Positions 8,643 to 57,470 of a stretch of DNA of 64,000 bases are shown here, in pieces. Under the pieces are notes generated by a model that had not been told where the DNA came from, made no database searches, and worked only from the letters and a program-made list of their open reading frames with translations. The position numbers were made by a program, and so were the translations under genes. The stretch comes from Candidatus Gastranaerophilales bacterium (GTDB lineage Bacteria > Cyanobacteriota > Vampirovibrionia > Gastranaerophilales > Gastranaerophilaceae): positions 3,131 to 67,130 of the forward strand of contig CALUQY010000001.1 in NCBI GenBank assembly GCA_944323035.1. The letters run 5' to 3'. Numbering within the stretch: position 1 is the stretch's first letter; each line of letters opens with the position of its first letter.

Positions 8643-8689
8643 TTTTCCATCCTTTCTTTTATTGCGTTGGGCTGGAAAGCCCAACCTAC

Positions 8690-28244: not shown

Positions 28245-28375
28245 TGCCCGCCATGTCATCCCGAATTTGTTTCGGGATCTGACCGGTATTGAAATCAGAA
28301 TATATACTCTGACCCGCCTGTTCCGCGATGTTTGACAGATGCTGAAACAAGTTCAGCATGACAAAAGAGGGCTCT
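28245..28375. repeat. GC-rich hairpin-repeat modules (gtcatcccgaatttgtttcgggatc ; gatgctgaaacaagttcagcatgaca)
   Basis: Same two hairpin modules recur at 47518-47605 and 56958-57050. Confidence 0.6.
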
Positions 28376-36309: not shown

Positions 36310-36314
36310 TTCTC

Positions 36315-37718
36315 CTAAAATCTAAAATAAATAAACGGATTATACGTTGAAGCCGCTATGGTCGCAGTTGAGAAAATCAACAGCACAATAAGCCAAACAT
36401 TCACAAAGGCTTTTACAATTTTGTTTTCCTGTTGCAGCATCTTCCCGCACAACGGCGTACAGCAAATAAATGCAGCTGCAAAAATTATAAATTCAAAATT
36501 ATCAACATAATACGGCAATGCATAAATTACATCATGAACTTTAACCAGCCCGAACATATTTTTAATATATGTCCACGCATACGCCATATCTTCAGCCCTG
36601 AACATTACCCAGCCGATTACAAATACAAGAATTGTATAAATATGTTGAAGGACTTTCTGCCAGATATATTGTTTTTCTTCATGCCAGCCGGTTAATTTTT
36701 CCAGAATAATAAAGAACCCGTTCCACGCGCCCCATACAACAAAATTCCACGCAGCACCATGCCAGATACCAGTCAGGAGAAAAACTATACCCAAATTCCG
36801 GATAGTTTTCCATTTTCCGGCTCTGTTTCCGCCAAGCGAAATATACACATACTGTTTGAACCATGTCGAAAGTGATATATGCCACCTGCGCCAAAATTCC
36901 GTAATAGATTTTGAAATATAAGGATAATTAAAGTTTTCAAGGAAATGAAACCCGAAAATAAGCCCAAGACCTATTGCCATATCCGAATATCCCGAGAAAT
37001 CAAAGAACAACTGCAAAGAATATGCAATGCTTCCCAGCCATGCAATAAGCGGCGAAAAAGTATCCGGCGCCTGAGAAAATATTTTATCCGCAATAGCCCC
37101 CATTGTATTTGCCAGAAGCATCTTTTTAGATAAACCTACAATAAAACGCTTTGTTCCGAATACAACTTTTTCAAAGTTAACATCACGATTATCTATCTGA
37201 TCCGCGACATCATGGTATTTAACAATCGGCCCTGCTATTAACTGCGGGAACAAACATATATAAAGCGCAAGTTTATAAACATCCTGCTGTGCCTTACATT
37301 CTCCACGATACACGTCTACGACATAAGACAAAGCCTGAAAGGTATAAAAAGAAATACCAATCGGCATTACAATATGGAGTAAATCAATATGAGAATGGAA
37401 AAGTCCATTAATATTCTCAATTAAGAAGTTAAAATATTTGAAGTAAATAAGTGAGCCTAGATTGATACAAATAGTCAAAATCAAAGGAATCTTAGCATTT
37501 CTGCCGGATTCTTTAAACTTTTCAACGATTTTTGCGCCATAAAAATTAACAAGTATCGTTAAAAGCATTATAGCCAGATACTTAGGCTCACCCCATGCAT
37601 AAAATATTATGCTTGCGACAAGTAAAATCGGATTGTGAAGCTCTTTTTTGGAAATCAAATAGAGCAAGCACACAATCGGCATAAACATATACACAAACGT
37701 CATTGACGAAAATAACAC
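36315..37718 (-). CDS. MBOAT-family membrane-bound O-acyltransferase (AlgI/DltB/PatA-like)
   Basis: Multi-TM protein; MBOAT signature WRRWHISLSTWF...GIWHG with the conserved His. Confidence 0.85.
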   Translation of the reverse strand: MLFSSMTFVYMFMPIVCLLYLISKKELHNPILLVASIIFYAWGEPKYLAIMLLTILVNFYGAKIVEKFKESGRNAKIPLILTICINLGSLIYFKYFNFLIENINGLFHSHIDLLHIVMPIGISFYTFQALSYVVDVYRGECKAQQDVYKLALYICLFPQLIAGPIVKYHDVADQIDNRDVNFEKVVFGTKRFIVGLSKKMLLANTMGAIADKIFSQAPDTFSPLIAWLGSIAYSLQLFFDFSGYSDMAIGLGLIFGFHFLENFNYPYISKSITEFWRRWHISLSTWFKQYVYISLGGNRAGKWKTIRNLGIVFLLTGIWHGAAWNFVVWGAWNGFFIILEKLTGWHEEKQYIWQKVLQHIYTILVFVIGWVMFRAEDMAYAWTYIKNMFGLVKVHDVIYALPYYVDNFEFIIFAAAFICCTPLCGKMLQQENKIVKAFVNVWLIVLLIFSTATIAASTYNPFIYFRF

Positions 37719-39442
37719 TAATTACCCTCCTTGTATAAAAATTTTAATCTTATAGCAGATGATAAACAGAGCACTAATACATTTGTATTATTATTCAATA
37801 TATCCTTTTCAAAACGTTCAATATTTAAGTTTTTAAAAGCCAGACTAATTTCCGGAAGCCAGGTATAAATTCTTTCTGTATTTTTAAAGCTATAAACAAT
37901 AGATTGTAAAAGATTTTCACCCATAGAATCTCCCCAAAGAGTCAAATTTGGAGCGGCAACATCATGTTTAAAATGTTTTAGCTTGTAATTTGCAGGATAA
38001 TTGGAATCAATCTTTAATGAAACATTTTCAGATTCTTTATTTTTATAATACTTATATTCAGTATCAAAAATTTTTTCATCTTTTAAGTGTAATACATTTG
38101 CAGTAAAACCGTTATGAAATGGGCGTTCCGGTTCGACCCTTACCTTTGGTGAATAAAAATAACTAAAATCACTCTCGTCATTAACATAAATAGAAGGAAA
38201 ATCCTTTTTTATATACTGCATTAAACATTTATATGCAAGATAAGCACCCTCATCAGTCCAATGGTGATCAGTCTTGTAAAAAAGCAATTCTTTACCGTTT
38301 GCAGCATTCTTAAATTCATCAATCGGATACAAAATATCAACATTTATCTTATTTTTAACATACTCTTTCACTTGCATCGTACGTGCATATTCATTACTTT
38401 TTGCAACCAGCGGAAATAGATTTGCTGAATAAACGTCATATTTTGAAGGGGCAATTAAAATATAAAATTTTATATTATTTTTCAGACAAAATTGTTTTAA
38501 ACGATTTATACTATAAACTATTCGTTCCAATTCCTCATTATTATAATAGCCGGATGATGGCCAATACGTATTACTCATCCAATTATTTCTTTTATTTATA
38601 AATCCCTGTTTATTTTCAAAATAATAAAATGCTATTTTATATTTAAATTGATTATAAAAAGATACTAAATATTCACGTAAATTAAACCTGTCACTGAACC
38701 AATTATCGTAATCACGCCCAAAATTATAGTTTATTTGACCTTTCTTATTAATAAATGGCTTCCAGACTGCAAGATTACGGTTTTCAGCATCTGAAAGTTT
38801 AGCATCAGAAATATGACTCATTGGTAAGAATAAAAATAACGCACAAATAATTAAAAATATTATATCTATACGGGAGTAATTACCAACGACCTTAAAATCT
38901 GCCAAATATGAGGTCAGTTTATACGACAGCAGATAACCTAATACCGCAATGATTATGAATGTCAATGCTTCAAATTTTATACCGGAGCGGACTTTTAGTT
39001 TTTCAGGATATGTCAAGCTGAAAGTATTAGCAGAAGGCATTAAGGAGTCCCCCCCCCCCCCGTACGTAGCACAGGACGCTAACTTAAACTCGGATACAGA
39101 TGGAAATTTAAACTTACCATTCTTCAGCGTAATATCTTTTATTTCAATTGGAGATAAATTCGATGATTTAACTACAATTCTAAAGCGTTTTGGGAATCTA
39201 GCTCTATCTATTTGACATTCACATTTCTGTATATTTCCATTCAAGTGTTTCTTTATAACGCACTGTTTTACTTTTTTAAAATCCTCATTATCCTTCTTAT
39301 TCAACTGGACGGTAAATGTATAATCTCCGTTACCTTTTACCAGAAAACTCACCGGCATTGGTTTAAATATCAGCCAGTGATTGCAGGTAAGAGCTAGCAT
39401 AATTATTGTCAAAACCCCGCTTATAATATCTCTTCTTCGCAT
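37718..39442 (-). CDS. AlgJ/AlgX-like DHHW-family protein, paralog B, in-frame G13 tract
   Basis: FYKTDHHWTDEGAYLAYK (canonical DHHW). N-terminal 200 aa are ~identical to paralog C. ATY-GGGG-DS encoded by G13. Confidence 0.65.
   Translation of the reverse strand: MRRRDIISGVLTIIMLALTCNHWLIFKPMPVSFLVKGNGDYTFTVQLNKKDNEDFKKVKQCVIKKHLNGNIQKCECQIDRARFPKRFRIVVKSSNLSPIEIKDITLKNGKFKFPSVSEFKLASCATYGGGGDSLMPSANTFSLTYPEKLKVRSGIKFEALTFIIIAVLGYLLSYKLTSYLADFKVVGNYSRIDIIFLIICALFLFLPMSHISDAKLSDAENRNLAVWKPFINKKGQINYNFGRDYDNWFSDRFNLREYLVSFYNQFKYKIAFYYFENKQGFINKRNNWMSNTYWPSSGYYNNEELERIVYSINRLKQFCLKNNIKFYILIAPSKYDVYSANLFPLVAKSNEYARTMQVKEYVKNKINVDILYPIDEFKNAANGKELLFYKTDHHWTDEGAYLAYKCLMQYIKKDFPSIYVNDESDFSYFYSPKVRVEPERPFHNGFTANVLHLKDEKIFDTEYKYYKNKESENVSLKIDSNYPANYKLKHFKHDVAAPNLTLWGDSMGENLLQSIVYSFKNTERIYTWLPEISLAFKNLNIERFEKDILNNNTNVLVLCLSSAIRLKFLYKEGN
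39049..39061 (-). repeat. Homopolymeric G13 tract (C13 on +) inside coding region
   Basis: Counted cc + 10c + c at 39049-39061. Confidence 0.9.
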
Positions 39443-39532
39443 TTACTCCTCCTTACCTAAACTATATTACAAACAGGGAGAATATTCATTCAAACATTCA
39501 ACATTTTAAATAAAATGTTACAATAAAACAAT

Positions 39533-41257
39533 TTACAACTTTTCCTCAAAAATATCCATAAAAGAATCCATATTTAAGAAACGTTGTAAAAAACGTTCTG
39601 TCGTTTCTATAATTAATATATCCGGTTTTTCAGAAAACAATAGACGTTTCATGTTTTCATTCAAAACAAAATTTCTACCACCACCAAAGAATAGATATTT
39701 ATAGATATGAAAATTTTCAGCCATGAAATACCTACAACGTAATTGAAAACTGTCACCAATTAAAACAAGTTTTAAATCATTTTGAGATTTTGCATTACTA
39801 TACTCATATAGTACATCATCTGAATTATTAGTAACATGTATGATAGATTCTTTAGCATTTGGATATTTGAGTTTATAATAATTAAAGCGATCTTCATATT
39901 TTGCTATAATGTTTTTATTTGTAATATTAAGACTGTCACCAATACGTTTACTACTAACCAATTCAACATCACTAAAATCTAATGGCTGAATATCTACAAA
40001 ATCTTTTTGTAAAGTCGACAGAATCGTTTGATACTCTATAAATGCCCCATCATAATTTAAATGGCTATCAGTTTTAAAAAATACATTTAGCTTTTTTGAA
40101 ACTAATAATAATTTTTCCTTAGAGGTTATTACTGACAAATCATTAATGTGTGAGATTATTGCTAATAATTGTTCATAACGGCTTTGACAATTATTTTGTA
40201 AATAATACTTCGGATAATATTCGGGGTAGATACTTTCTTTATCTGGTGACAACATAATATATAATTTAACATTGTGCTTTTTACAATATAAGTTTAATTC
40301 ATTTAAATTTTGCTGTATTGTAAACAACTCTTCTTTAGAAAATAGATTGTTTTTCAAATACATTTGAGTTGCATTATATGATTTGCGATAACAATAACCC
40401 GAAACCTTATCTAATATCATGACTCTTGTTTCATAGTACCTACCGGGAAGAATAAAATGTAATTGTTCATACAAACCAAACAATACACTCCGTAAACCAA
40501 ACCTGTCACTAAACCAGTTATCATAATCACGACCAAAATTATAATTTATTTGACCTTTTTTATTAATAAATGGCTTCCAGACGGCAAGATTTCGGTTCTC
40601 TGCATCTGATTTTTTTGCATCTGAGATATGACTCATTGGTAAGAATAAAAATAACGCACAAATAATTAAAAATATTATATCTATACGGGAGTAATTACCA
40701 ACGACCTTAAAATCTGCCAAATATGAGGTCAGTTTATACGACAGCAGATAACCTAATACCGCAATGATTATGAATGTCAATGCTTCAAATTTTATACCGG
40801 AGCGGACTTTTAGTTTTTCAGGATATGTCAAGCTGAAAGTATTAGCAGAAGGCATTAAGGAGTCCCCCCCCCCCCCGTACGTAGCACAGGACGCTAACTT
40901 AAACTCGGATACAGATGGAAATTTAAACTTACCATTCTTCAGCGTAATATCTTTTATTTCAATTGGAGATAAATTCGATGATTTAACTACAATTCTAAAG
41001 CGTTTTGGGAATCTAGCTCTATCTATTTGACATTCACATTTCTGTATATTTCCATTCAAGTGTTTCTTTATAACGCACTGTTTTACTTTTTTAAAATCCT
41101 CATTATCCTTTTTATTCAATTGAACTGTAAACGTATAATCCCCATTCCCTTTAACGAAAAAGGTTACAGGTAAAGGTTTAAATATTAACCAGAATTTACT
41201 CGTCAAAACAAGCAATATTATGGTCAAAATAGCACTTATAATATCCCTTCTACGCAT
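39533..41257 (-). CDS. AlgJ/AlgX-like family protein, paralog C (degenerate DSHL motif), in-frame G13 tract
   Basis: N-terminal ~215 aa identical to paralog B (DNA 40615-41257 = 38800-39442). C-terminal domain diverged, FFKTDSHLNYDGAF. Confidence 0.55.
   Translation of the reverse strand: MRRRDIISAILTIILLVLTSKFWLIFKPLPVTFFVKGNGDYTFTVQLNKKDNEDFKKVKQCVIKKHLNGNIQKCECQIDRARFPKRFRIVVKSSNLSPIEIKDITLKNGKFKFPSVSEFKLASCATYGGGGDSLMPSANTFSLTYPEKLKVRSGIKFEALTFIIIAVLGYLLSYKLTSYLADFKVVGNYSRIDIIFLIICALFLFLPMSHISDAKKSDAENRNLAVWKPFINKKGQINYNFGRDYDNWFSDRFGLRSVLFGLYEQLHFILPGRYYETRVMILDKVSGYCYRKSYNATQMYLKNNLFSKEELFTIQQNLNELNLYCKKHNVKLYIMLSPDKESIYPEYYPKYYLQNNCQSRYEQLLAIISHINDLSVITSKEKLLLVSKKLNVFFKTDSHLNYDGAFIEYQTILSTLQKDFVDIQPLDFSDVELVSSKRIGDSLNITNKNIIAKYEDRFNYYKLKYPNAKESIIHVTNNSDDVLYEYSNAKSQNDLKLVLIGDSFQLRCRYFMAENFHIYKYLFFGGGRNFVLNENMKRLLFSEKPDILIIETTERFLQRFLNMDSFMDIFEEKL
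40864..40876 (-). repeat. Homopolymeric G13 tract (C13 on +) inside coding region
   Basis: Counted 7c + 6c at 40864-40876. Confidence 0.9.
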
Positions 41258-46408: not shown

Positions 46409-47747
46409 TTAACGTTCAACACATCGGGAACTATATCTATTATTCCTTGAAACCAACATTCTGGCTCCTGAAGAGATATTTTGAGCCCAAGCCTTTGTAC
46501 CGGAAGTCGTATACCCCAAAGAAGATGTCCAAATTGAGCCATTACCGGTTCCGATAAAATGATCACGACTTTGCATTCTTTTATTAACAAAAATGGCTCC
46601 TGCTTCTTCTGTTGTTGGAAGTCTATACTTATTATCCTGTGCAGTACAATATTTAGCGGCATCAATCCAGCCGTTTTCATGAACAGCATTTTCACGTTTT
46701 ACATAAGGTGCTGCCAAAACGCTATCCGTTGGATAAAAAGCGGTCATAAAACCTATATCTTTACCAACAGTATTCGGCCCTTTAAGTCCATTAAGATCAT
46801 ATACAAAATTTGCGCAAACCATTGTCTGTATTGGCACATGAGCTTCAGAAGATTTTAAATCTGCAACGCAGTTTTTATTATAATAAACAGCAATACTTTC
46901 ACCGTTAGCAGTTTCAAACGCAACAGCTTTACTCCGTATAGCGCTATAAGAATACGTAGAGTCATAACTTGAGCTTGCCAGAACCATCTGTGTATTTAAA
47001 GCAGCCATTGTTGTGGGGAAATTAAAATCTGCTTCACCAGAAAGGCGTGTTATTGTTTTAGGTAAACCGCAATCTTTAAAATGTTCATTGTCACAGATAT
47101 TATTAATTTTTAAGACTTTAGCCAGTCCTGCAGTGACGAAAGTTTCAGCAGCTGTATCCGCCGTGACACTGCCGGAATCATCTTCCGCTAGTGTACCATA
47201 ACCATTAAGATTAGGCATTAAGGCAATTGCCTGACTCATTCTGGCATAGAGGGCTTTTCGCTGCGTGTTCCATGTGCGCTCGTTAATGTTTCCCGTAAGG
47301 CTCGGTAAGGTTATCGCCGCCACCACACCTATTATCGTGAGGGATAAGAGTATCTCCGCCATAGTAAAAGCTAATCGCGCCAACCGCCCCACGTCATTGC
47401 GAGCGACCACCGGGAGCGTGGCAATCCACCGGCGGTCAAGCCGGCTTCCTAATTGGTTGGGCGTTAAAAAGTCATGTTCTACCAGTTGTGGATGCCACTC
47501 AGCGGTCGGTTCAGCCGGTGTCATCCCGAATTTATTTCGGGATCTGTCCGGCGACACTGATAGCCCGCATCGCTGGCCAGATGCTGAAACGAGTTCAGCA
47601 TGACAGTTTTGTTTCACATTCTCGCTTTGTGCCTCTGTTCGCTCGCGCTGTTCGCAATGACAATTATAGGCTTTCGACTCGCCAATAGTGCCTGTTAAGA
47701 GAGGCCCCCCCCCCCCCTGCATTAATGCTTACTCTTCGGTTTTTCAT
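46409..47747 (-). CDS. Type IV pilin-like paralog, polyG OUT of frame (phase OFF) relative to conserved start
   Basis: Conserved RBS + ATG at 47747 gives MKNRRVSINAGGGG.. and terminates after 27 codons with G13. Pilin frame 46409-47722 contains ..LARLA|FTMAEILLSLTIIGVVAAITLPSL. G12 or G15 would fuse the two frames. Confidence 0.65.
47705..47717 (-). repeat. Homopolymeric G13 tract (C13 on +)
   Basis: Counted 6c + 7c at 47705-47717. Confidence 0.9.
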
Positions 47748-47759
47748 TCTTTCCATCCT

Positions 47760-47995
47760 TTCTTTTGTTGCGTTGGGCTGGAAAGCCCAAACTACTGGAA
47801 TAAGGCAATAGGTCATTAAGGCATTAAGGCAATATGACCTTTATATTATTTTCTGCCATTTCGGTCATATTCCTTATTAACTTTTTAACCTATTAACTTA
47901 TTAACTTTTCTCGTCCATTTGACCATATTGCCTTATTCTCTTATTGCCTTCTTCATTATGTACAATGTTTTCTATTTAGTCAAGCCTACAGGCTG
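47760..47995 (-). promoter_or_regulatory. Pilin upstream module (hairpin, 8-mer arrays in inverted pairs, TTGACT-N18-CATAAT promoter)
   Basis: ttgggctggaaagcccaa at 47771-47790. Arrays ggcaataggtcattaaggcattaaggcaatatgacc and the inverted ccttattaac..ttattaac. Promoter cttgactaaatagaaaacattgtacataat (minus) at 47955-47990. Confidence 0.55.
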
Positions 47996-48789
47996 AACGA
48001 GTCGTCTTTCAAAAGCTGCTGTTCAATTGTTTCTGACGGCGGAGTTATTCTTACAGGTATGCCTTTTTTATAATATTTCAGCCCGATACCTTCGTTCGGA
48101 ACCGGTTTAACATTGTCGGAATAATCTATAGTTTTATTTTCCAGCCGCAAGATAACGTTTTCTTCAACATCTTTCGCTATAATATTTTTGGAAAACGAAC
48201 GGACTTTTTCATAGTTATCAGCTGCAGCTGAGAAATTTTTCGCAGAAAAAGGCTTCTTATTTGATGCAAGCGGCATTGTATAGGATTTGTGCCACAGCGC
48301 AACCCCGTCTGTGTTATCAATAAGCATTACCATTGTAGTCCAATTGTATTGATAATCTATTTGAAAATCCGAAGCAAGCTTCAAAACATCCCATAGTTCA
48401 AGTTTTGCCTCATTTTTATCCTCAACATAGCCCACAACAAGTAACGTTTTATCAGCAGTACTTCTTAAAGATTTTACGAGTTTATCATAATCAATCAAAC
48501 CGGTTTTTCTGAACTTTTCCGCTGCAGTTTTAACATTAAAGTCATTGGCGGTCAAAGCTTTAACACTATCAAGCCGTGTGGTACTTATCTTATCACCTAA
48601 CAGAAAGTTCTGAATTATCTCACCGGCAACGATTTCAGAAGCCGTTTCAAACCCGTAAAAATTATTATTTTGAACATCAGTCATATAAAGCGGCAGCACA
48701 AAGATTTCCTCTTCTTTTGCGCACGCTGCCAAACCAATAAACATAAAAATAAATACCAGTAATTTTTTCATATCAATATTATACTCCAA
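47986..48789 (-). CDS. Hypothetical lipoprotein
   Basis: Lipobox-like MKKLLVFIFMFIGLAACAKEEE. Confidence 0.4.
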   Translation of the reverse strand: MEYNIDMKKLLVFIFMFIGLAACAKEEEIFVLPLYMTDVQNNNFYGFETASEIVAGEIIQNFLLGDKISTTRLDSVKALTANDFNVKTAAEKFRKTGLIDYDKLVKSLRSTADKTLLVVGYVEDKNEAKLELWDVLKLASDFQIDYQYNWTTMVMLIDNTDGVALWHKSYTMPLASNKKPFSAKNFSAAADNYEKVRSFSKNIIAKDVEENVILRLENKTIDYSDNVKPVPNEGIGLKYYKKGIPVRITPPSETIEQQLLKDDSFSL

Positions 48790-48842
48790 ATAAACGATTT
48801 TACAAAGAACAAATTATACTAAAATACTTTTTGAGGTGTCTT

Positions 48843-49226
48843 ATGAATTACCGTGAATTATTAGATAAAGCAAAAGAAGTTTCCCAAAACGCGTACGTAC
48901 CGTATTCAAAGTTTAAAGTCGGCGCGTGTGTATTAACGGAAGATGACAGCACTTTTTGCGGCTGCAATTTTGAAAACGCAAGCTACGGGCTTACGATTTG
49001 TGCCGAGCGCAACGCTATCGGAACAGCCATTGCAAACGGTCATACCAGAATAAAAGCTATTGCAATATATTCACCAAACGAGGATAACTGTTTCCCATGC
49101 GGAGCTTGCAGGCAGGTTATGACAGAATTCCGCGCCGGCGGCGATATGGACATCGTAACCGAAGTCAAAGGTGAACCGCAAATTTACAAACTTAGTTACC
49201 TCATGCCTGAAAGTTTTAAACTTTAA
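48843..49226 (+). CDS. cdd: Cytidine deaminase
   Basis: CAERNAIGTAIANG...PCGACRQVM, i.e. zinc ligands (H/C)AE...PCxxC of the homotetrameric CDA family. Confidence 0.8.
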   Translation: MNYRELLDKAKEVSQNAYVPYSKFKVGACVLTEDDSTFCGCNFENASYGLTICAERNAIGTAIANGHTRIKAIAIYSPNEDNCFPCGACRQVMTEFRAGGDMDIVTEVKGEPQIYKLSYLMPESFKL

Positions 49227-49426
49227 TGTATTTAATTGAACTTATTGTAAAATTATTCAGTAAAAAGAACGGCTACATCAGGCAGAAAACGCCGGAAGAG
49301 CTTGAGGAAGAACGCTGCGACCATGTTTTTATGCCGGTTGACAGCACCGGAGAAATTCTTGCCTGCCGGAACTGCGGCGCCATTGTGCACAAAAGCAATC
49401 TCAAAAAATATAAAAAACAAGATTAA
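49226..49426 (+). CDS. Small zinc-ribbon hypothetical protein
   Basis: CDHVFMP...CRNCGAIVH. Confidence 0.3.
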   Translation: MYLIELIVKLFSKKNGYIRQKTPEELEEERCDHVFMPVDSTGEILACRNCGAIVHKSNLKKYKKQD

Positions 49427-50135
49427 TTAAAAAATCCGCAACAAGCATATAAATCGTGGAAAGTATTGATGCCCGGGTCGTTGATATTCCGACCTGCTTT
49501 GCCCCGCCGGTTGTTGTATAACCCTGCGTTGCGCACACAAGCGTTATCAATGCTCCAAAAATCATTGCCTTAAAAAGGCTTATATAAACATCCCGAATTG
49601 AAAGCCATGCCCATACAGAACTTATGTATCTTGCCGGATGAAGGTCAATTGTCGCCTGAGCAACAAACATTCCGCCGACAATCCCGACGAATTCTGCAAG
49701 TAATACAACCATAGGAACAGTGAAAAATCCTGCCAGAATTCTCGGTGTAAAATAATACCCCACAGGATCAACTTTTAAGGTTTTAAGCGCATCAACCTGA
49801 GAAGTTACCTGCATATTTGCAATTTCTGCACTAATTGCAGTACCTGCCCTTGCGCCGATTGCAAGCGCCACAAACCCCGGGGCAATTTCTCTTATCATAA
49901 CAATTGCAATAGAACCGCCGATATACGTATCAGCCCCAGACATTGCAAAACTTTTCGCCACCTGAATTGTCATTACAAGAGAAGCGATAAATACAATCAT
50001 CAGGGATATCGGCAATGAGTCGTAACTTATTGCCGATGCCTGTGAAATTATTGTACTAAAACGCGCCTGTCCTGAGAACAAGTATTTAAAACAGCGTATT
50101 AAGTTTTGAACACATAAACCTAAGAATGTAAACAT
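49401..50135 (-). CDS. MlaE-like ABC transporter permease
   Basis: MlaE/YrbE-type multi-TM permease with conserved ...SLPISLMIVFIASLVMTIQVAKSFAMSGADTYIGGSIAIVMIREIAPGFVALAIGARAGTAISAEIANMQVTSQVDAL. Confidence 0.65.
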   Translation of the reverse strand: MFTFLGLCVQNLIRCFKYLFSGQARFSTIISQASAISYDSLPISLMIVFIASLVMTIQVAKSFAMSGADTYIGGSIAIVMIREIAPGFVALAIGARAGTAISAEIANMQVTSQVDALKTLKVDPVGYYFTPRILAGFFTVPMVVLLAEFVGIVGGMFVAQATIDLHPARYISSVWAWLSIRDVYISLFKAMIFGALITLVCATQGYTTTGGAKQVGISTTRASILSTIYMLVADFLINLVFYIF

Positions 50136-50149
50136 CTGTCCTATTAATT

Positions 50150-50262
50150 GTTAATAAATTAATGAGTTAATCACTGCCTCCGGCAGCGTTAATAAGGATT
50201 TTGTGAATTAACCCGAATTAATATTCATCAATTTGGTTATATTCCTAATTAACTTATTAACA
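50150..50262. mobile_element. Short MITE-like element with inverted TTAATNAG arrays
   Basis: ttaataaattaatgagttaatcac ... inverted cctaattaacttattaac, with conserved inner aatttggttatattcc. Confidence 0.45.
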
Positions 50263-50274
50263 TTATTTTGTCGA

Positions 50275-51186
50275 TTAGTACACCGGCATACACCAGTGTT
50301 TGTATTTAGCAACTTTACCTTTTACAACGTCAAAATACAGATTTTGTAATTTTGCCGCAACAGGGCCGACTTTACCGTCACCCAGTTTTCTGCCGTCAAT
50401 TTCAACAATCGGGCTGACCTGTGCACCTGTTCCGCAATAGAAAGCTTCATCCGCAAGGTAAAGTTCCGAACGGTCAATTGCGCGTTCTTCAACTTCAATA
50501 CCCAGATCTTTGGCAAGTTCAATAATAGTGTTTCTTGTGATGCCTATTAAAATACTGTCTGTTTTTGCAGAGGTAACAAGTTTTCCGTTCATAACCATAA
50601 AGAAGTTCATTGCAGAACCTTCTGTAACCTGTCCGCATTCATCCAGAACAATCGCATCATCAAAACCGGCATTATGCGCATCTGTCTTAATTAAAGCAGA
50701 GTTTGCATAAGCGCCGCTCACTTTAGCACGAGGCGGAATAGCATTATCGCTGTTTCTTCTCCACGAAGAAACACAAACCCGCAAACCTTTTGAAGTATCA
50801 ATATAATCGCCCATTTTGTTCGTCAAAAGAACAAAAGCGTCAGGGTTATCATAAAGCCCCGGCCCTACTTTTTGCGCGCATTTATATAAAGTTGGACGAA
50901 TATAAGTATTTTCTCTGTAATTATTCTTTTTCAACTGTTCAACAGTTAATTTGCAATATTCATCAATGCTCATAGTCGGCGTCATAAACATAATTTTCGC
51001 GCTTGCGAACATTCTTTCATAGTGTTCTCTGACCCTGAATGCATAAAGTTGCTTTTCTTCTTCGTTCCAATAAGCTCTTATACCCTCAAACACAGAAGTT
51101 CCATACAAAAAAGCATGCGTTCTGACCGGTATAGAAGCCTTTGTCGAATCAACCCATTCCCCGTTCAAATAAAAATATTCTGTCAT
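50275..51186 (-). CDS. ilvE: Branched-chain amino acid aminotransferase (class IV PLP fold)
   Basis: YLNGEWVDS..A.IPV..HAFLYGTSVFEGIRAY... and the typical IlvE layout. Confidence 0.8.
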   Translation of the reverse strand: MTEYFYLNGEWVDSTKASIPVRTHAFLYGTSVFEGIRAYWNEEEKQLYAFRVREHYERMFASAKIMFMTPTMSIDEYCKLTVEQLKKNNYRENTYIRPTLYKCAQKVGPGLYDNPDAFVLLTNKMGDYIDTSKGLRVCVSSWRRNSDNAIPPRAKVSGAYANSALIKTDAHNAGFDDAIVLDECGQVTEGSAMNFFMVMNGKLVTSAKTDSILIGITRNTIIELAKDLGIEVEERAIDRSELYLADEAFYCGTGAQVSPIVEIDGRKLGDGKVGPVAAKLQNLYFDVVKGKVAKYKHWCMPVY

Positions 51187-51341
51187 ATTTCTCTCCTTCT
51201 AAAACTTCTATTGCTATCATAGTACCACGAAAGATTATGAAAATACTGATTTTTATACTTTTATGAACAATTATTAATAATTAGGGCTTGCCAAAATACG
51301 CCAAAAGTGCTACAATAGTAGCAAAGGTGTGAGGTAGAATT

Positions 51342-51767
51342 ATGTTAGGTGCTATTATAGGAAACGGATTGTACGGAAATAAGTATGCCTTCGGGTTTCA
51401 GAATGCGAAAAAATCACAGGACGAACCGCAGGATGAGGAAAAACAGGCTTTAATAAAAAAGAATTATAATGAAATTTACGCCCACGAACTTGCACATAAA
51501 ACCGCAGGCGGACATCTTGCGGGTGCAATTGTGATAGAGCGTAATGCCGACGGCATACCTTTTGCCGGACATGTGGCTATAAAAATGCCATCCCTTAATC
51601 CTAATAACCCGCAGCAAACGATTAACGATGCAAATACGGTAATACGCTCCGCTATGGCACCGGCAGACCCTTCCGGTCAGGACTACAAGGTTGCGGCACA
51701 GGCAAGGAACATTAAATCCGAAGCTCAAAATATGGCAAGCAAACAAAGATTAAATTTATTAGCATAA
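51342..51767 (+). CDS. Hypothetical protein with HExxH motif
   Basis: YAHELAHKTAGGHL. Confidence 0.3.
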   Translation: MLGAIIGNGLYGNKYAFGFQNAKKSQDEPQDEEKQALIKKNYNEIYAHELAHKTAGGHLAGAIVIERNADGIPFAGHVAIKMPSLNPNNPQQTINDANTVIRSAMAPADPSGQDYKVAAQARNIKSEAQNMASKQRLNLLA

Positions 51768-51769
51768 AA

Positions 51770-51793
51770 AGGAGCCGGTTGGCTCCTTTTTTA
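51770..51793. terminator. Bidirectional terminator
   Basis: aaaggagccggttggctcctttttt between convergent genes. Confidence 0.65.
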
Positions 51794-53030
51794 TTAATTA
51801 CGCTTGACGCATTTGACCCTTTTGGCTTCTGTTTCATCTATAGGTTCAAGAAATATTCTTCCGGTTGTGCCGCTCATATTCCATGCTTTAGTTGAATCAT
51901 AGCGGCTGGATGACCAATAGTGTAGACTTGCAATATTAAGCAATTTGCTATTATAAAACATAGAAATAACTTCACCTATGTTTGGCACACGGTATTCTGC
52001 ATCCAAAGCCGTACAGGCCTTGGGTGCCTCATTAAAGTCAACTTCAACGCCCGCATTCCGAGGATACAGCATCGGGGCGACAACAAGGCTGTCTGACGGA
52101 TACAACACCGTCATTACACCGATGTCTTTACCAACAGCATTCGGACCTTTGCTGCCGTTTAGGTCATACACAAAGTTCGCACAAACCTTGCTCGCACCAT
52201 AGTAATCTGTTTCCTGCATATCTGCCCTGCAAGTTGGATTATAGAAGGCGAGAATACTTTCGCCATTCTGGGTTTCAAAAGCAGCGGCTTCGCTATCTAC
52301 ATTACTATAAGAATAGTCTATTGGTGTTGAAGCAGTAGTATCGGTAAATGACATACTTGTGTTTTTAGGGTTCAATTCACTGACGAGTTTTGGCATTGAC
52401 GTTGTACTGCCAGCGTTATCCGTAATCTGTTTTGAGGTTATTCCGCAATCTTCAAGGTGGTCTTTGTCGCAGATATTATTAATTTTCAAAACCTTAGAAA
52501 GCCCGGCCGTTACAAAAGTTTCGGCATCGGAATAGCCGTTCATTGAATCCATTAACGAAACTGCCTGTGAAAACCTTGCATATAGCGCTTTTCTTTGCGT
52601 ATTCCACGTTCGTTCATTAATGTTTCCTGTAAGTGACGGAAGCGTTATCGCTGCGACTACGCCGATAATTGTTAGGGATAACAGTATCTCAGCCATGGTA
52701 AACGCTGACCGTAAGCTGACCAGACCATTGTGGAACCGGCTCAGCCGGGCTGCCATCGTGAATGCGCAACGTTGGTTCTCCCGCCTGTCAAATTCTACGC
52801 AACGATTATCAATCGTTGCAGAATTTGTCCGCTCCTTACACTCGCGCTCCAGTCGCAACGGCGGCATCGTCCAGTTGCGCGCCCTGCCCGTTTCGCTCGC
52901 GCGAACCGGCGCCGGCTCTCCGCCCTTCGCTGTAGCTTTCACGCCGTCCGTGAGCACGGATTGCTTAGATAGAACCGGCTCAGCCGGCCCCCCCCCCCCC
53001 TGCATAAGTAATTACACTTCGGTTTTTCAT
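51794..53030 (-). CDS. Type IV pilin-like paralog, polyG OUT of frame (phase OFF)
   Basis: ATG at 53030 gives MKNRSVITYAGGGGAG*. Pilin frame 51794-53005 contains ..LRSA|FTMAEILLSL. C-terminal ~240 aa are identical to the 56046-57149 paralog. Confidence 0.65.
52988..53000 (-). repeat. Homopolymeric G13 tract (C13 on +)
   Basis: Counted ccc + 10c at 52988-53000. Confidence 0.9.
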
Positions 53031-53116
53031 AAGTTTTTCTATCCTTTCTGGCTTCTCGCCATTATCTAATTGTGCATATCGCAATACGACACATTGTTAT
53101 TATGTACTATTTTTTT

Positions 53117-53150
53117 AAAAAAGTAAAGCCCCTTTCGGGGCGTTACTTTT
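53117..53150 (-). terminator. Terminator hairpin 3' of oxidoreductase operon
   Basis: gtaaagcccctttcggggcgttac with flanking T/A runs. Confidence 0.5.
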
Positions 53151-53422
53151 TATTTTCTTTCAATTCTGATTGCACTGTCCGGACAAGTTAATTCACAAGT
53201 TCCGCAGGCAATACATATTGAAGGATCCGGTTCAACCGCAGGGGTTTGGAAAAGTCCGGTTTCTTTTGACCATTTTAAGCAGTCTTTACCCATTTTATTC
53301 ATTGGGCATTTTGCGATACAAAGCCCGCAGCCTTTGCAAAGGTCAGTGTAAACATAATAATCAGCTTTTCCTTTGCCTACACCTTCAATTTTGTATCCTT
53401 TATATTGTAATTGTTCTGTCAT
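53150..53422 (-). CDS. porD: 2-oxoacid:ferredoxin oxidoreductase delta subunit (2x[4Fe-4S] ferredoxin)
   Basis: CKGCGLCIAKCP...CIACGTCELTCP. Substrate specificity (pyruvate vs 2-ketoisovalerate vs 2-oxoglutarate) cannot be assigned from sequence alone. Confidence 0.7.
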   Translation of the reverse strand: MTEQLQYKGYKIEGVGKGKADYYVYTDLCKGCGLCIAKCPMNKMGKDCLKWSKETGLFQTPAVEPDPSICIACGTCELTCPDSAIRIERK

Positions 53423-53440
53423 TTTAATTACCTTTCCAAG

Positions 53441-53998
53441 TTATACCGCTGCATTAACCATTTCCATACCCATTTCAAGAGCTTTATAGTTTAATTCTCT
53501 CAATTCAGGTTTTACAGCGAATTTTTTACCTAACGCCAGCTCCATTGCGTTTTTGATATCTTCAACTTTCAAAACATTAGTTGCCGCAAGCAATACGCCA
53601 AGAATAATGATATTGAATACACGTGCGCTAAGTTTTTCATTAGCAATTCTGTTAGCATCAACACCGATAATCTTTTTGCATTTGCATTCCGGTTTTTTTG
53701 TACAAACTGATGTATCATAAACCACAATAGAATTTTCGTCAACGTAAGTATCGCATCTGTCGATAGCTCTGTCAGAAAGCATTATAACGATATCTCCTTT
53801 TGCGAAACGAGGTTCGCCGATTTTTTCATCAGCGATTTGACAGAATGCAATAGAAACCCCGCCGCGTTGTTCTACGCCGAAGTTCGGGATATATAATACT
53901 TGCTTGCCTGCTTCATAGCCGGCTTCAACAAGAATTTTAGCAACAGATTGAACGCCTTGGCCGCCTTCACCTGCTAATACCATTTTTGTTCTACTCAT
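53441..53998 (-). CDS. porC: 2-oxoacid:ferredoxin oxidoreductase gamma subunit
   Basis: N-terminal GEGGQG; size and position in the delta-gamma-beta-alpha cluster. Confidence 0.7.
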   Translation of the reverse strand: MSRTKMVLAGEGGQGVQSVAKILVEAGYEAGKQVLYIPNFGVEQRGGVSIAFCQIADEKIGEPRFAKGDIVIMLSDRAIDRCDTYVDENSIVVYDTSVCTKKPECKCKKIIGVDANRIANEKLSARVFNIIILGVLLAATNVLKVEDIKNAMELALGKKFAVKPELRELNYKALEMGMEMVNAAV

Positions 53999-54035
53999 AT
54001 TTTTACCTTTCTCCTATGTTAAACCACGCCCGATA

Positions 54036-54791
54036 TTATTCCAAGCCTTCTCTAACAAGGAATTCGTTAACTTCAAAAACGCTTTCCATTTGTTCCAATC
54101 TGCCCCACGTATCAACATTATTAGTTCTCCAGTTGAGCGGGCAAAGAGAGAGGACTTCAACAAATGAGAAGCCGCCCATTTCAACGTTTTTAAGCGCTTT
54201 TTTGAATGTTGCGCGAAGTTTTTTCAGGTTAGAAACAGACGCTCTTGCGACATAAGATTTTGCAGGATCCGCAATTGCCGCAACCATTTCCGCGCCTTTT
54301 GCAGGACGGCCAGTAACATCACAATCACGTCCGTAAGGAGTTGTTTCCGTTTTTTGACCCGGCATTGTAGTCGGTGACATTTGTCCGCCTGTCATACCAT
54401 AGTTAGTATTATTTGTAACGATAATCAGCATTCTTTCGGAACGAACAGTTGCGTTGACAAGGTGCTGTGAACCAATTGCCAAACCGCCGCCGTCACCCAT
54501 ATAAGCAATACCAATGGCATCTTTATTAGCTCTGGTAAACCCGTAGATTACAGGAGTTGTACGTCCGTGGTGGGTTTGAACGGTGTCTAAATCCATATAA
54601 TTCCACGAAAGCAATGAGCATCCGATATCACAACCGAAAACTGCTTTTTGTTTTAAACCTAAATCATCAATAGCCCAGGCTAGTGATTTTAATATCATAC
54701 CGTGACCGCAGCCGGGACAAAATTTGGAAGCGCCGACTTCCGCATTTTGTGCGTCAGGCAATTTTGGAGGCATTGTTAATAATTCTGTCAT
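54036..54791 (-). CDS. porB: 2-oxoacid:ferredoxin oxidoreductase beta subunit (TPP-binding)
   Basis: FCPGCGHG...GDGG TPP-binding motifs. Confidence 0.75.
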   Translation of the reverse strand: MTELLTMPPKLPDAQNAEVGASKFCPGCGHGMILKSLAWAIDDLGLKQKAVFGCDIGCSLLSWNYMDLDTVQTHHGRTTPVIYGFTRANKDAIGIAYMGDGGGLAIGSQHLVNATVRSERMLIIVTNNTNYGMTGGQMSPTTMPGQKTETTPYGRDCDVTGRPAKGAEMVAAIADPAKSYVARASVSNLKKLRATFKKALKNVEMGGFSFVEVLSLCPLNWRTNNVDTWGRLEQMESVFEVNEFLVREGLE

Positions 54792-54809
54792 TTTGTTTTT
54801 CTCCTTTTA

Positions 54810-55913
54810 CTAAACTGCTGCCGGAACGTCAGCCATTTCAACAACTTTGTTAACAATATCATCACCGGTAACACCTACACCCATTTTGAATAATGTTTGA
54901 TAAGGTGTTGTTAAGCCGTAGATTTTTTCAAGTACCATTTGTGCCAATTGACCGTTTGCAGATTCTGTAAACAGAACCTGTTTAGCTCTTGCTACTGCTG
55001 CTCTAAGCGGTTTAACATCAAGCGGTCTGATTGTAATCGGTCTGAATAAGCCGGCTTTAATACCTTTTGCTCTTAATTCATCAACAGCGGTCATTGCAGA
55101 ACGAGCTACAATACCGTGAGCAATAATAAGAATTTCAGCATCTTCCGTTTTATATTCAAAAGATTCAGCGACTTCTTCAGCCATTTTGTCGTAGTCAACC
55201 TGATACCGGTCAAGAACTTCCATAAGTTCTTCTTCCATATTGTAAGTATTTCTAAGGTGAACCGATTTTCTGTCTTTGCCGATTTCGCCTTCGCCGAGCA
55301 AGTAAGGAGAAACAGGAACCATTTTAATACCGCGGGAAGCAGGATCGTATAAGGTAACAGGTTCTCTCATTTTACCTTGATATCCGTCTGCCAGTAGGTA
55401 TGTAGGGAACTTATAAGTCCAGGCAGTGTTGAACGCCTTAATCATATAATCGTAAAGATCCTGGTGACCGGCAGTTGAATAAACGATTCTGAAACCTTCA
55501 CCATTTCCGCCAAAACAGGTCAAACGGGTTTCCTGCTGTGCGTAAATTACTGTAGCGGTAGAAGGGCCGCCTCTTTGCATAACCGCACAGACAAAAGGTA
55601 TTCTCATCATTTCCGCCATAGATTGGGCATCCTGCATGATTACGTTGCCAGGGCCTGCGGTTGCAGTGAAAGCTCTTTTACCGGCTAAAATTCCGCCGAT
55701 AGTCGAAAAGCCTGCGGAGATTTCGTCTTCTGTCTGTAAAAATCCTGCCTCTGTTTTTGGAAGCAATTTACACCAGGTGTGCATAATTTCGTTTTGCGGG
55801 GTGATTGGATAACCATACATAAAGTCAGCTTCCGCAGCGTTTGCAGCGTATGCCAGAACTTCATTCCCCGTCAAAAACATCTTTGTGTCTTCTTTGATCA
55901 GTTTGTTTACCAT
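54810..55913 (-). CDS. porA: 2-oxoacid:ferredoxin oxidoreductase alpha subunit
   Basis: FLTGNEVLAYAA... alpha-subunit N-terminus. Start at MVNKL, with RBS aagaaggtag, is preferred over the track start. Confidence 0.75.
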   Translation of the reverse strand: MVNKLIKEDTKMFLTGNEVLAYAANAAEADFMYGYPITPQNEIMHTWCKLLPKTEAGFLQTEDEISAGFSTIGGILAGKRAFTATAGPGNVIMQDAQSMAEMMRIPFVCAVMQRGGPSTATVIYAQQETRLTCFGGNGEGFRIVYSTAGHQDLYDYMIKAFNTAWTYKFPTYLLADGYQGKMREPVTLYDPASRGIKMVPVSPYLLGEGEIGKDRKSVHLRNTYNMEEELMEVLDRYQVDYDKMAEEVAESFEYKTEDAEILIIAHGIVARSAMTAVDELRAKGIKAGLFRPITIRPLDVKPLRAAVARAKQVLFTESANGQLAQMVLEKIYGLTTPYQTLFKMGVGVTGDDIVNKVVEMADVPAAV

Positions 55914-56018
55914 AAGTTCTACCTTCTTTTTACAAAAAATACATGTATCTTTTAATACATGTAATATAATATTATAAAAAATGATTTTAGGCAAAAAGAT
56001 TAAAGTAATGTAAATAAA

Positions 56019-56040
56019 AAGGCGGGAACATTGCCCGCCT
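56019..56040 (-). terminator. Rho-independent terminator of pilin-like gene
   Basis: aggcgggcaatgttcccgcct + T-run on minus. Confidence 0.6.
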
Positions 56041-56045
56041 TTGTG

Positions 56046-57149
56046 TTAACGCTTAACGCATTTAACCATTTTCCATCCGGTTGAGCTAATTGGCTCAATA
56101 AATATTCTTCCTGTTGTTCCGCTCATATTCCAGGCTTTAGTTGAATCATAGCGGCTGGATGACCAATAGTGCCTATTTGCAATATTAAGCAATTTGCTAT
56201 TATAAAACATAGAAATAACTTCACCTATGTTTGGCACACGGTATTCTGCATCCAAAGCCGTACAGGCCTTGGGTGCCTCATTAAAGTCAACTTCAACGCC
56301 CGCATTCCGAGGATACAGCATCGGGGCGACAACAAGGCTGTCTGACGGATACAACACCGTCATTACACCGATGTCTTTACCAACAGCATTCGGACCTTTG
56401 CTGCCGTTTAGGTCATACACAAAGTTCGCACAAACCTTGCTCGCACCATAGTAATCTGTTTCCTGCATATCTGCCCTGCAAGTTGGATTATAGAAGGCGA
56501 GAATACTTTCGCCATTCTGGGTTTCAAAAGCAGCGGCTTCGCTATCTACATTACTATAAGAATAGTCTATTGGTGTTGAAGCAGTAGTATCGGTAAATGA
56601 CATACTTGTGTTTTTAGGGTTCAATTCACTGACGAGTTTTGGCATTGACGTTGTACTGCCAGCGTTATCCGTAATCTGTTTTGAGGTTATTCCGCAATCT
56701 TCAAGGTGGTCTTTGTCGCAGATATTATTAATTTTCAAAACCTTAGAAAGCCCGGCCGTTACAAAAGTTTCGGCATCGGAATAGCCGTTCATTGAATCCA
56801 TTAACGAAACTGCCTGTGAAAACCTTGCATAAAGCGCTTTTCTTTGCGTGTTCCATGTTCGCTCGTTGATGTTACCGGTAAGGCTCGGTAATGTTATCGC
56901 TGCCACCACGCCGATTATCGTCAGGGATAATAATATCTCTGCCATTGTGAACGCTGCGTTTTTCGTCATCCCGAATTTAGTTCGGGATCTGTCCAACGTT
57001 ACCGGTAGCTCGCTTTGCTGGACAGACCCTGAATCAAGTTCAGGGTGACAATAAAATTTTACGTTGTCCGTGAGCACGCTTTCCGATTGTAGAACCGGCT
57101 CAGCCGGCCCCCCCCCCCCCGTGCAAATACTTACACTCTGTTTTTTCAT
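56046..57149 (-). CDS. Type IV pilin-like paralog, polyG in frame (ON)
   Basis: MKKQSVSICTGGGGPAEP... runs through G13 in frame to ..MTKNAA|FTMAEILLSL; an alternative short leader MTKNAA is also available. Shares its 3' ~720 bp with the 51794 paralog. Confidence 0.7.
   Translation of the reverse strand: MKKQSVSICTGGGGPAEPVLQSESVLTDNVKFYCHPELDSGSVQQSELPVTLDRSRTKFGMTKNAAFTMAEILLSLTIIGVVAAITLPSLTGNINERTWNTQRKALYARFSQAVSLMDSMNGYSDAETFVTAGLSKVLKINNICDKDHLEDCGITSKQITDNAGSTTSMPKLVSELNPKNTSMSFTDTTASTPIDYSYSNVDSEAAAFETQNGESILAFYNPTCRADMQETDYYGASKVCANFVYDLNGSKGPNAVGKDIGVMTVLYPSDSLVVAPMLYPRNAGVEVDFNEAPKACTALDAEYRVPNIGEVISMFYNSKLLNIANRHYWSSSRYDSTKAWNMSGTTGRIFIEPISSTGWKMVKCVKR
57108..57120 (-). repeat. 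Homopolymeric G13 tract (C13 on +)
   Basis: Counted ccc + 10c at 57108-57120. Confidence 0.9.
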
Positions 57150-57199
57150 TTCTTCTATCCTTTCTGGCTTCTCGCCATTGTCTAATTATGATACCGGCT

Positions 57200-57470
57200 T
57201 GACCGCCGGTCCTTTCTTTGTTTTGCGTTGGGCTGGCAAGCCCAAACCTACTGGTCTAAGGCAATAGGTCAATAGGGCATCATGGCAATAGGACTATTTC
57301 TTTTTTCCATTCGGTCATTACGACTCATTGCCTTATTTTCTTATTGCCTTCCTTATTATGTACCATATTTCAATTTTAGTCAAGACCGATAGCAAGGGTC
57401 TAATTAGGAGGCCGCCTTGACCGGCGGTTATGTACCATGTTTTCAATTTAGTCAAGTTATGATATAACAA
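57200..57470 (-). promoter_or_regulatory. Pilin upstream module with tandemly duplicated promoter unit
   Basis: Hairpin ttgggctggcaagcccaa at 57222-57240; 8-mer arrays; two copies of cttgactaaa..ggtacataa at ~57350-57385 and 57440-57470. Confidence 0.5.

Follow-up and report, generated by a model that had tools for sequence, protein, structure and literature searches.

In the 64,000-nt stretch of Candidatus Gastranaerophilales DNA considered here (contig CALUQY010000001.1; called the window below), a six-frame search found exactly four genes with a pilin-type N-terminus, which we name paralogs A to D; all of them lie on the minus strand (Table 1) and read ...A↓FTMAEILLSLTIIGVVAAITLPSLTGNINERTWNTQRK across the predicted prepilin cleavage site (arrow). 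Each has a conserved ATG (at 8642, 47747, 53030 and 57149 in A, B, C and D, respectively) that is preceded by AAAGGAT(G/A)G and followed, after 29-32 nt in all four copies, by a tract of G10 or G13. The initial annotation of this DNA had described these ribosome-binding sites, start codons and tracts and had read the genes as slipped-strand contingency loci; the anatomy was recovered as described, with the tracts at the same positions and of the same lengths.

Homopolymers of at least 10 nt number seven in the window, the GC content of which is 39.8%, and each is a run of C on the plus strand, that is, of G on the coding strand of a minus-strand gene; runs of nine or more A or T are absent from the whole window. 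Runs of C10 or longer gave 26 overlapping matches, against 0.03 expected from shuffled sequences, and the view that the tracts are far from chance is well founded. The earlier inventory was right for the four tracts of the pilin-like genes but overlooked three more tracts of G13-14, in AlgX-like genes.

Frame arithmetic puts the conserved start in frame with the downstream pilin (a state referred to as ON) in A, where 32 nt precede G10, and in D, where 29 nt precede G13, and +1 out of frame (OFF) in B and C, which both have 30 nt and G13; this is the distribution that had been proposed. Reading from the conserved start stops after 27 codons in B and 17 codons in C, within the 15-27 codons claimed for this early termination, and, beginning at the tract, the pilin frame stays open. 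Since both genes have a second ATG (ATGCA-G13) in the pilin frame, open reading frame (ORF) callers report starts of the type MQGGGG... for them. Almost every paralog of the family has a conserved TTGAC(T/A)-N17-CATAAT promoter, at a distance of 75-340 nt on the upstream side of the tract.

Table 1. Coordinates of the pilin-like paralogs, G tracts and AlgX-like/MBOAT genes in the window
Feature	Position	Strand	Basis
Paralog A pilin-like gene, ON with G10; mature F codon 8411	7464-8642	-	ORF and frame arithmetic
Paralog A G10 tract	8601-8610	-	Homopolymer search
Paralog A leader, 189 nt, REP-like hairpins	8412-8600	-	0 pilin-frame stops, 3 in each other frame
Paralog A promoter TTGACT-N17-CATAAT	8860-8888	-	Sequence match
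Paralog B pilin-like gene, OFF with G13; mature F codon 47368	46409-47747	-	ORF and frame arithmetic
Paralog B G13 tract	47705-47717	-	Homopolymer search
Paralog B leader, 336 nt	47369-47704	-	0 pilin-frame stops; 8 and 7 in other frames
Paralog B promoter TTGACT-N17-CATAAT, then ~200-nt hairpin-forming 5' untranslated region insert	47955-47983	-	Sequence match
Paralog C pilin-like gene, OFF with G13; mature F codon 52702	51794-53030	-	ORF and frame arithmetic
Paralog C G13 tract	52988-53000	-	Homopolymer search
Paralog C leader, 285 nt, duplicated AFTMA remnant	52703-52987	-	0 pilin-frame stops; 6 and 3 in other frames
Paralog D pilin-like gene, ON with G13; mature F codon 56951	56046-57149	-	ORF and frame arithmetic
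Paralog D G13 tract	57108-57120	-	Homopolymer search
Paralog D leader, 156 nt	56952-57107	-	0 pilin-frame stops; 4 and 3 in other frames
Paralog D promoter TTGACT-N17-CATAAT; second, hairpin-disrupted copy just upstream	57355-57383	-	Sequence match
Third AlgX-like paralog, G14 (36178-36191) at codons 42-46, in frame	34930-36309	-	ORF and domain match
AlgX-like gene tract G14	36178-36191	-	Homopolymer search
MBOAT partner gene	36315-37718	-	Domain match
AlgX/DHHW-like acetyltransferase gene, internal G13 (39049-39061), in frame	37718-39442	-	ORF and domain match
AlgX/DHHW-like gene tract G13	39049-39061	-	Homopolymer search
Tandem AlgX/DHHW-like paralog, internal G13 (40864-40876), in frame	39533-41257	-	ORF and domain match
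Tandem AlgX/DHHW-like paralog tract G13	40864-40876	-	Homopolymer search

The cleavage region, A↓FTMAE with Glu at +5 and Pro at +22, has the N-terminal motif and the hydrophobic helix of a class III (prepilin) signal; TIGR02532 (prepilin-type cleavage/methylation) passes its cut-off of 16.3 with 16.7 in D and 18.4 in A, and PF07963, with scores of 17.4-18.6, stays under its cut-off of 21.2. The first 45 mature residues (FTMAEILLSLTIIGVVAAITLPSLTGNINERTWNTQRKALYAR) differ by 0-1 amino acid (aa) among A-D, whereas the DNA encoding them differs at 20-34 of 135 nt; the conservation of this N-terminus is therefore due to purifying selection on the protein, and gene conversion was rejected as its cause. 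After residue 45, A, B and C/D are 40-49% identical to one another and C and D are 96% identical. In a structure model, the C-terminal ~100 residues match the fold of the Legionella Lcl C-terminal domain and of the Bdellovibrio Bd2740 fibre-tip domain, both heads of adhesins that bind ligands; PF07603 (Lcl C-terminal/DUF1566, C-type-lectin-like) scores 17.4 bits in D and 24.4 bits in B, below its gathering cut-off of 34.9, and many homologs have a precomputed assignment to this family. Of the earlier description as major/minor pilin-like proteins, the class III signal recognised by TIGR02532 stands and the status of major or minor pilin is not established. No type IV pilus or type II secretion machinery gene was found in the window; pilB, pilC, pilD and pilT have been reported for Ca. 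Gastranaerophilus termiticola (PMC5877343).

Leader reading frame and tract length in related genomes

The segments between the tract and the codon of the mature F, of the lengths given in Table 1, are all multiples of three in A-D, and these leaders have no stop in the pilin frame against 3-8 in each other frame. When the count was extended to 72 different loci of the family, taken from the window and from six related genomes, the 3170 leader codons had a single stop in the pilin frame, against totals of 208 and 171 for the two remaining frames; the leader is open in the pilin frame at 71 of these loci and the spacer is a multiple of three at 63. Because of this imbalance, translation has to begin before the tract and pass through it and, on the sequence evidence, selection for translation from tract to pilin is the sole explanation of the open leaders and of the 3n spacers. 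Initiation of the pilins downstream of the tract whatever its length, the counter-case raised in the initial annotation, is ruled out as the normal route by the leaders open at 71 of 72 loci.

Prepilin leaders of class III are normally short and basic, of about 6-30 aa. Those of the window measure 66-127 aa when read in the ON frame with the conserved ATG as their first codon; among the homologs the median length is 83 aa, and the longest leaders are well above 100 aa. An example of a predicted leader peptide is VSINAGGGGPLLTGTIGESK. Where a paralog lacks the tract, its leader is short and canonical (MKKA↓F, MKRFLDA↓F and MKTFNA↓F), and such leaders fix the cleavage site. It is highly improbable that the pilins are started beside this site, for example at MTKNAA↓F, the upstream ATG and the tract then forming a separate small ORF without any gating: in-frame ATG codons do occur 4-13 codons before F in several leaders, gene callers have chosen MTKNAA, MTFA, MALSA and MSCG as starts in OFF variants, and the tract-free paralogs use leaders as short as these, but an internal start leaves the stops (1 versus 171-208) and the 3n spacers without a reason. 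Moreover, the internal ATGs have no Shine-Dalgarno sequence and often belong to the 3' arm of a hairpin of the repetitive extragenic palindromic (REP) type, and in A and B the only in-frame candidates close to the cleavage site are TTG or GTG codons, with no ATG among them.

Using a scan with one genome per species, the family was placed in Candidatus Gastranaerophilus / Gastranaerophilales (Melainabacteria), in metagenome-assembled genomes (MAGs) from the gut, with 504 relatives, and a protein search gave 2374 homologs; a JGI metagenome scan for G10 followed by CCGGCTGAGCCGGT returned 0 matches. Gastranaerophilus is related to cyanobacteria but is not photosynthetic. The arrangement of Shine-Dalgarno sequence, ATG and tract is repeated in ~60 further paralogs, with tracts of 10-16 nt, clustering at 11-15 nt, over the 72 loci. 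Related loci covering 702 kb contain 92 tracts of at least 10 G, and 83 of these lie in pilin leaders. A second N-terminus class, MKN(F/L)KAENPC.., has its tract 46-51 nt after the start. Most of the leaders listed for the homologs begin with MKxRxVxIxxGGGG or directly at the glycines (MQGGGG, MHGGGGG), the latter because the gene caller meets the conserved start out of frame; in protein clusters at 90% identity, orthologous loci alternate between MKxRxVxIxxGGGG... and MQGGGG/MHGGGGG... N-termini. Frame states could be scored at 68 loci, of which 20 are ON, 38 are +1 and 10 are +2, and every genome is mixed. Of the best 80 loci, the closed 2.02-Mb hicanu MAG OZ007029.1 by itself supplies 33 or more, and the tract can be scored in 23 of its paralogs; two of these 23 are ON (P ~0.005 under three equally likely frames, a value subject to consensus error of long reads at homopolymers).

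Assembly consensus lengths of the tracts were compared with those in related genomes and metagenome contigs, a check suggested in the initial annotation, and they differ at all of A-D. At locus B, contigs of two different projects align without a mismatch, one over 2538 nt and the other over 2215 nt, and have a single gap, which is G12 for G13; the G12 version encodes a 445-aa fusion, MKNRRVSINAGGGGPLLTG.... At locus C, an independent contig aligns over 2436 nt with 0 mismatches and the same single gap, G12 for G13, giving the fusion MKNRSVITYAGGGGPAEPV.... Both the 2538-nt match at B and the 2436-nt match at C come from one contig, ERZ24773409 NODE_263 (18.6x). The prediction that G12 would restore the fusion in both genes thus came true in contigs that are otherwise identical. 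Locus D reads G13 both here and in a second sample, but G15 in a contig of 2.08 Mb whose flanks are otherwise the same, and locus A has G10 in the window and G13 elsewhere, in frame both times.

The paralog situated between a GGDEF gene and ychF was followed in 21 independent contigs, in which G11 occurs once and G12 and G13 ten times each; as the contigs were picked by protein state, these counts are not frequencies. Over 209 informative single-nucleotide polymorphism columns, one haplotype of this paralog has G11 (L104), G12 (L084) and G13 (L095, L099 and L103), and two further haplotypes each occur with both G12 and G13. Since lengths differ on identical flanks and haplotypes, tract length changes recurrently and much faster than point substitution proceeds. 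That the tracts, or their differences in length, were created by sequencing or assembly, through poly-G reads and homopolymer miscalls, is scarcely credible. Such errors do exist in these data, as runs of G52-54 at two contig ends are obviously artefactual, one 3.4x contig is garbled just before the tract and contig ends are frequent at tracts; yet the tract occupies one codon position in more than 70 loci of six genomes obtained with different technologies, including the closed hicanu MAG, the lengths cluster at 11-15 nt, and G12 and G13 are each present in many independent contigs at 18-46x.

Probable phase variation and its alternatives

The anatomy of the genes, the open leaders and the G12/G13 change as sole difference between otherwise identical strains all support the contingency-locus reading, and we consider it very probable, from the sequences compared, that the pilin-like genes are homopolymeric-tract contingency loci subject to translational phase variation by slipped-strand mispairing. 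Each gene has its own sigma70-type promoter and a strong Shine-Dalgarno sequence, with an ATG followed by ~10 codons (MKNRxVxIxx) and by G10-G16. The G run encodes Gly in every frame and the leader is open solely in the pilin frame, up to the predicted site where Ala or Gly precedes Phe. Slipped-strand mispairing at replication would add or remove one G, presumably at high and reversible rates within a lineage, and a change of one G would move the start linked to the Shine-Dalgarno sequence in or out of the pilin frame, so that the paralogs would be turned ON or OFF independently, the OFF state presumably giving no protein. A prepilin peptidase would remove the leader, and the machinery of the type IV pilus would bring the protein to the cell surface. 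The population would then display a shifting subset of lectin-headed pilin-like adhesins with a constant 45-residue start, a variable body and a lectin-like C-terminus.

Several points weigh against this reading. The tract lengths are consensus values compared between samples; assembled consensus lengths of G12-G15 can be wrong, Illumina quality falls at poly-G, the closed MAG is a long-read (hicanu) assembly from a type of read prone to homopolymer errors, and many contigs end at the tracts or have N there. The leaders (19-146 aa) far exceed any characterised prepilin leader, and many have an in-frame ATG just before the cleavage site (MTKNAA↓F in D) from which a tract-independent initiation is possible. 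The residue at -1 is Ala in 82 of 113 homologs and Gly, the canonical residue, in 31. The middle domain gave no pilin-fold match in a search with the structure model, so that the proteins owe the label 'pilin-like' solely to their N-terminus. Finally, slippage of RNA polymerase or of the ribosome on G13 could leave the OFF states leaky.

Taken further, this last point would make the tract a leaky attenuator, at which stuttering of RNA polymerase or re-pairing of tRNA-Gly on the ribosome gives graded low expression at any length and changes of DNA length merely tune the expression level of all paralogs. We regard this as unlikely. Tracts of 10-16 nt are longer than the ~9-bp RNA:DNA hybrid, and a homopolymer exceeding the hybrid is the condition for transcriptional realignment; re-pairing would be perfect because the G run reads Gly in all frames, and only 2 of 23 loci nominally ON in the closed MAG would be odd if OFF were absolute. 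Slippage is, however, best documented for A/T runs, and DNA length is the sole change between otherwise identical strains and switches exactly in or out of frame. Attenuation of this kind complements a switch in the DNA and does not replace it.

Switching by the DNA tract would have several consequences. At least 23 genes for lectin-headed pilin-like proteins, each switchable independently of the others, in a 2-Mb genome point to strong fluctuating selection on surface adhesins, whether by antibody, phage or changing glycan ligands; the Gastranaerophilales are uncultured gut commensals that are reported to be enriched in non-industrialised human populations (bioRxiv 10.64898/2026.04.24.720558). 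The tract lengths are ready markers for within-host population dynamics in metagenomes. In practice, the tracts also break assemblies and lead gene callers to hundreds of mis-started proteins (MQGGGG...).

Comparison with known contingency loci

The proposed mechanism is classical slipped-strand phase variation. In Neisseria gonorrhoeae and N. meningitidis, pilC1 and pilC2, which encode a pilus-associated adhesin, have G9-20 inside the gene near its 5' end and are turned ON and OFF by slipped-strand mispairing, and the pgl (pglA, pglI) and lgt genes behave likewise (PMC5953494). Jonsson et al. in 1991 reportedly placed the pilC tract in the region coding for the signal peptide. Here, as in pilC, the tract codes for a segment that the mature protein would lack, in our case the predicted leader. 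Unlike PilC, a large tip/assembly protein with a Sec signal and two copies, the present proteins have a class III leader, which is expanded by repeat elements, and dozens of paralogs per genome. Neisseria also varies its pilin by pilE/pilS gene conversion, which is not seen in the Gastranaerophilus paralogs: their conserved N-terminal coding regions differ by 15-25% of nt, and conversion from silent cassettes was rejected because nearly every paralog has its own promoter, Shine-Dalgarno sequence and start.

In Campylobacter jejuni, the poly-G loci are genes of surface structures and of their modification, and tract length varies between isolates (PMC3025981). Many G tracts on the coding strand, a small, low-GC, gut-associated genome and a bias to surface genes are shared with this species, and the tracts of the AlgX-like/MBOAT locus parallel those in its glycan-modifying genes; Campylobacter tracts, by contrast, are mostly G8-G12 and spread over unrelated genes, whereas 83 of 92 tracts here belong to one pilin-like family, at one conserved position. 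The adhesin genes sabA, hopZ and oipA of Helicobacter pylori have CT repeats in the region coding for the signal sequence, which gate translation. As in those genes, a repeat in a cleaved N-terminal region gates paralogous adhesins, with the difference that H. pylori uses dinucleotide repeats and Sec signals in a handful of genes for beta-barrel outer-membrane proteins. The domains of Legionella Lcl and Bdellovibrio Bd2740 sit on collagen-like or trimeric fibre stalks and their counterpart here stands behind a prepilin N-terminus.

Haemophilus influenzae lic1A combines a repeat tract with a choice of start codons, which differ in frame, and B and C are similar in that the second ATG (ATGCA-Gn) is in another frame than the ATG linked to the Shine-Dalgarno sequence; two of the three classes of tract length therefore give an in-frame start in these genes, and the two ATGs could provide strong, weak and off levels of expression. 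The second ATG (the MQGGGG start) was nevertheless rejected as a general alternative start, as only 8 of the ~48 OFF loci have one and it is without a Shine-Dalgarno sequence, and its resemblance to lic1A is, on the same count, probably incidental.

In the literature, no paper was found on phase variation, homopolymeric tracts or a repertoire of pilins in Gastranaerophilales or Melainabacteria and, as far as this search went, the statement that such loci are undescribed for this kind of organism holds. New are the lineage, which extends contingency loci of the Neisseria/Campylobacter style to the Cyanobacteriota, the scale (at least 23 tract-bearing paralogs in a 2-Mb genome) and the long leaders made of in-frame REP-like elements; unusual traits are the position of the tract in a class III leader and the combination, in dozens of paralogs, of an invariant assembly stalk with variable lectin-like heads.

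AlgX-like genes, repeat elements and assemblies

Three tandem paralogs of AlgX/DHHW-like SGNH acetyltransferases flank one MBOAT gene (34930-41257, minus strand), and each has an in-frame tract of G13-14. The gene at 37718-39442 has G12 in three other samples, is otherwise identical over 2.7 kb and is there split into ORFs of 133 and 440 aa. The tracts of the three genes and this G13/G12 polymorphism suggest a phase-variable choice among alternative O-acetylation partners, and a small phasome would thus also cover surface O-acetylation, as in Campylobacter and Neisseria. After its G tract, the AlgX-like gene at 34930-36309 has CGTGCCTTACCCGC (36164-36191), pilin paralog A has CGTGCCTTATCCGC after its own (8587-8610; both minus strand), and the RALPAKLG leader module of many homologs starts with a similar RALP translation. 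These junctions hint that the tract and the first module after it might move together.

A more far-reaching idea, which we hold to be doubtful, sees in the leader an evolvable module that is purpose-built for switching, and not a place where insertions are simply tolerated. The tract and a first module of the PAEPV, RALPAKLG or PLLTGTI type would travel together, as the occurrence of a junction of G run and CGTGCCTTACCCGC in an AlgX-like gene may indicate, REP hairpins would tune switching rate, mRNA stability or translation, the two ATGs would give three levels and the whole would amount to a combinatorial surface code. If true, an uncultured gut relative of cyanobacteria would have more than 25 independently switching lectin-headed pilins together with phase-variable O-acetylation.

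The leaders are mosaics of short hairpin elements, such as tgtcatgctgaac..gttcagcat and atcccgaa..ttcgggat, which occur in both orientations, with a CHxEL... translation in 49 homologs and a reverse-strand ...QxLxxVQxD translation in 7. The same family is found outside the pilin genes: a double hairpin (tgtcatgctgaacttgtttcagcat ... atcccgaaacaaattcgggatgaca) resembling REP elements or miniature inverted-repeat transposable elements (MITEs) lies at 28254-28363 (minus strand) in an ordinary 5' intergenic region, and related elements are seen at 20575-20613, 3117-3141 and 30034-30054. As leaders and ordinary intergenic DNA share these hairpin elements, the idea that the modules are pilin-specific sequence was rejected. 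The hairpins in the leaders are most likely tolerated passengers; with the leader discarded after cleavage, as proposed, an insertion would survive only where it leaves the frame open, and in-frame REP elements in a cleaved leader would represent a rare, clean case of repeats filtered by reading-frame selection. Other Gastranaerophilus species have spacers of mostly 12-33 nt, and the long leaders are therefore a lineage-specific accretion outside the core switch; close orthologs differ by entire leader modules, one having a leader of 19 aa against 127 aa in the window.

The leader of copy C (52703-52790, minus strand) contains a second, degenerate pilin N-terminus (CAFTMAARLSRFHNGLVSLRSA↓FTMAE). 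AFTMA is duplicated there around a CCCGGCTGAGCCGG hairpin element, and the module AFTMA(A/D)RLSRFHNGLVxLRSA recurs in many homologs; the repeat of AFTMA resembles the trace of an element that inserted here and duplicated its target.

Between promoter and Shine-Dalgarno sequence, A (8660-8855), B (47762-47950) and D (57190-57350; all minus strand) have an insert of ~150-200 nt in the 5' untranslated region (5'UTR). It has conspicuous aaggcaataag repeats, is rich in AAGGCAATAAG / CTTATTGCCTT and TTAATAAG repeats, can be folded into a single long, imperfect hairpin (-52.6 kcal/mol, z -4.65) and looks like an element of the MITE type. Most paralogs are without this insert and have their promoter just 75-90 nt from the tract; its absence there led us to reject the hairpin as a core regulatory element. 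An inverton was also rejected, as the inverted repeats of A, B and D sit downstream of the promoter and do not flank it. Rfam, searched over the whole window at gathering thresholds, gave no match, and there is no known riboswitch or leader RNA upstream of the genes. Copy D has, relative to its orthologs L081 and L083, a 64-nt insertion (57384-57447, minus strand) in which the promoter is duplicated (TTGACTAAATTGAAAACATGGTACATAA...) and which contains a small hairpin, CCGCCGGTCAAGGCGG.

The tracts systematically break or corrupt short-read assemblies: about 20 of the 102 pilin matches lie 450 nt or less from a contig end, two contig ends having the G52-54 artefacts. N runs stand directly after G tracts in the Ca. 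Gastranaerophilus phascolarctosicola Zag_221 MAG (MOYE01: L017, L020, L061, L062, L064 and L067); L046 and L060 also belong to the affected loci. A MAG deposited as 'Fusobacterium sp. isolate NALB_7963_5' (JAMPIJ01; locus L002 and others) has many copies of the Gastranaerophilus-specific pilin family and is probably mislabelled.

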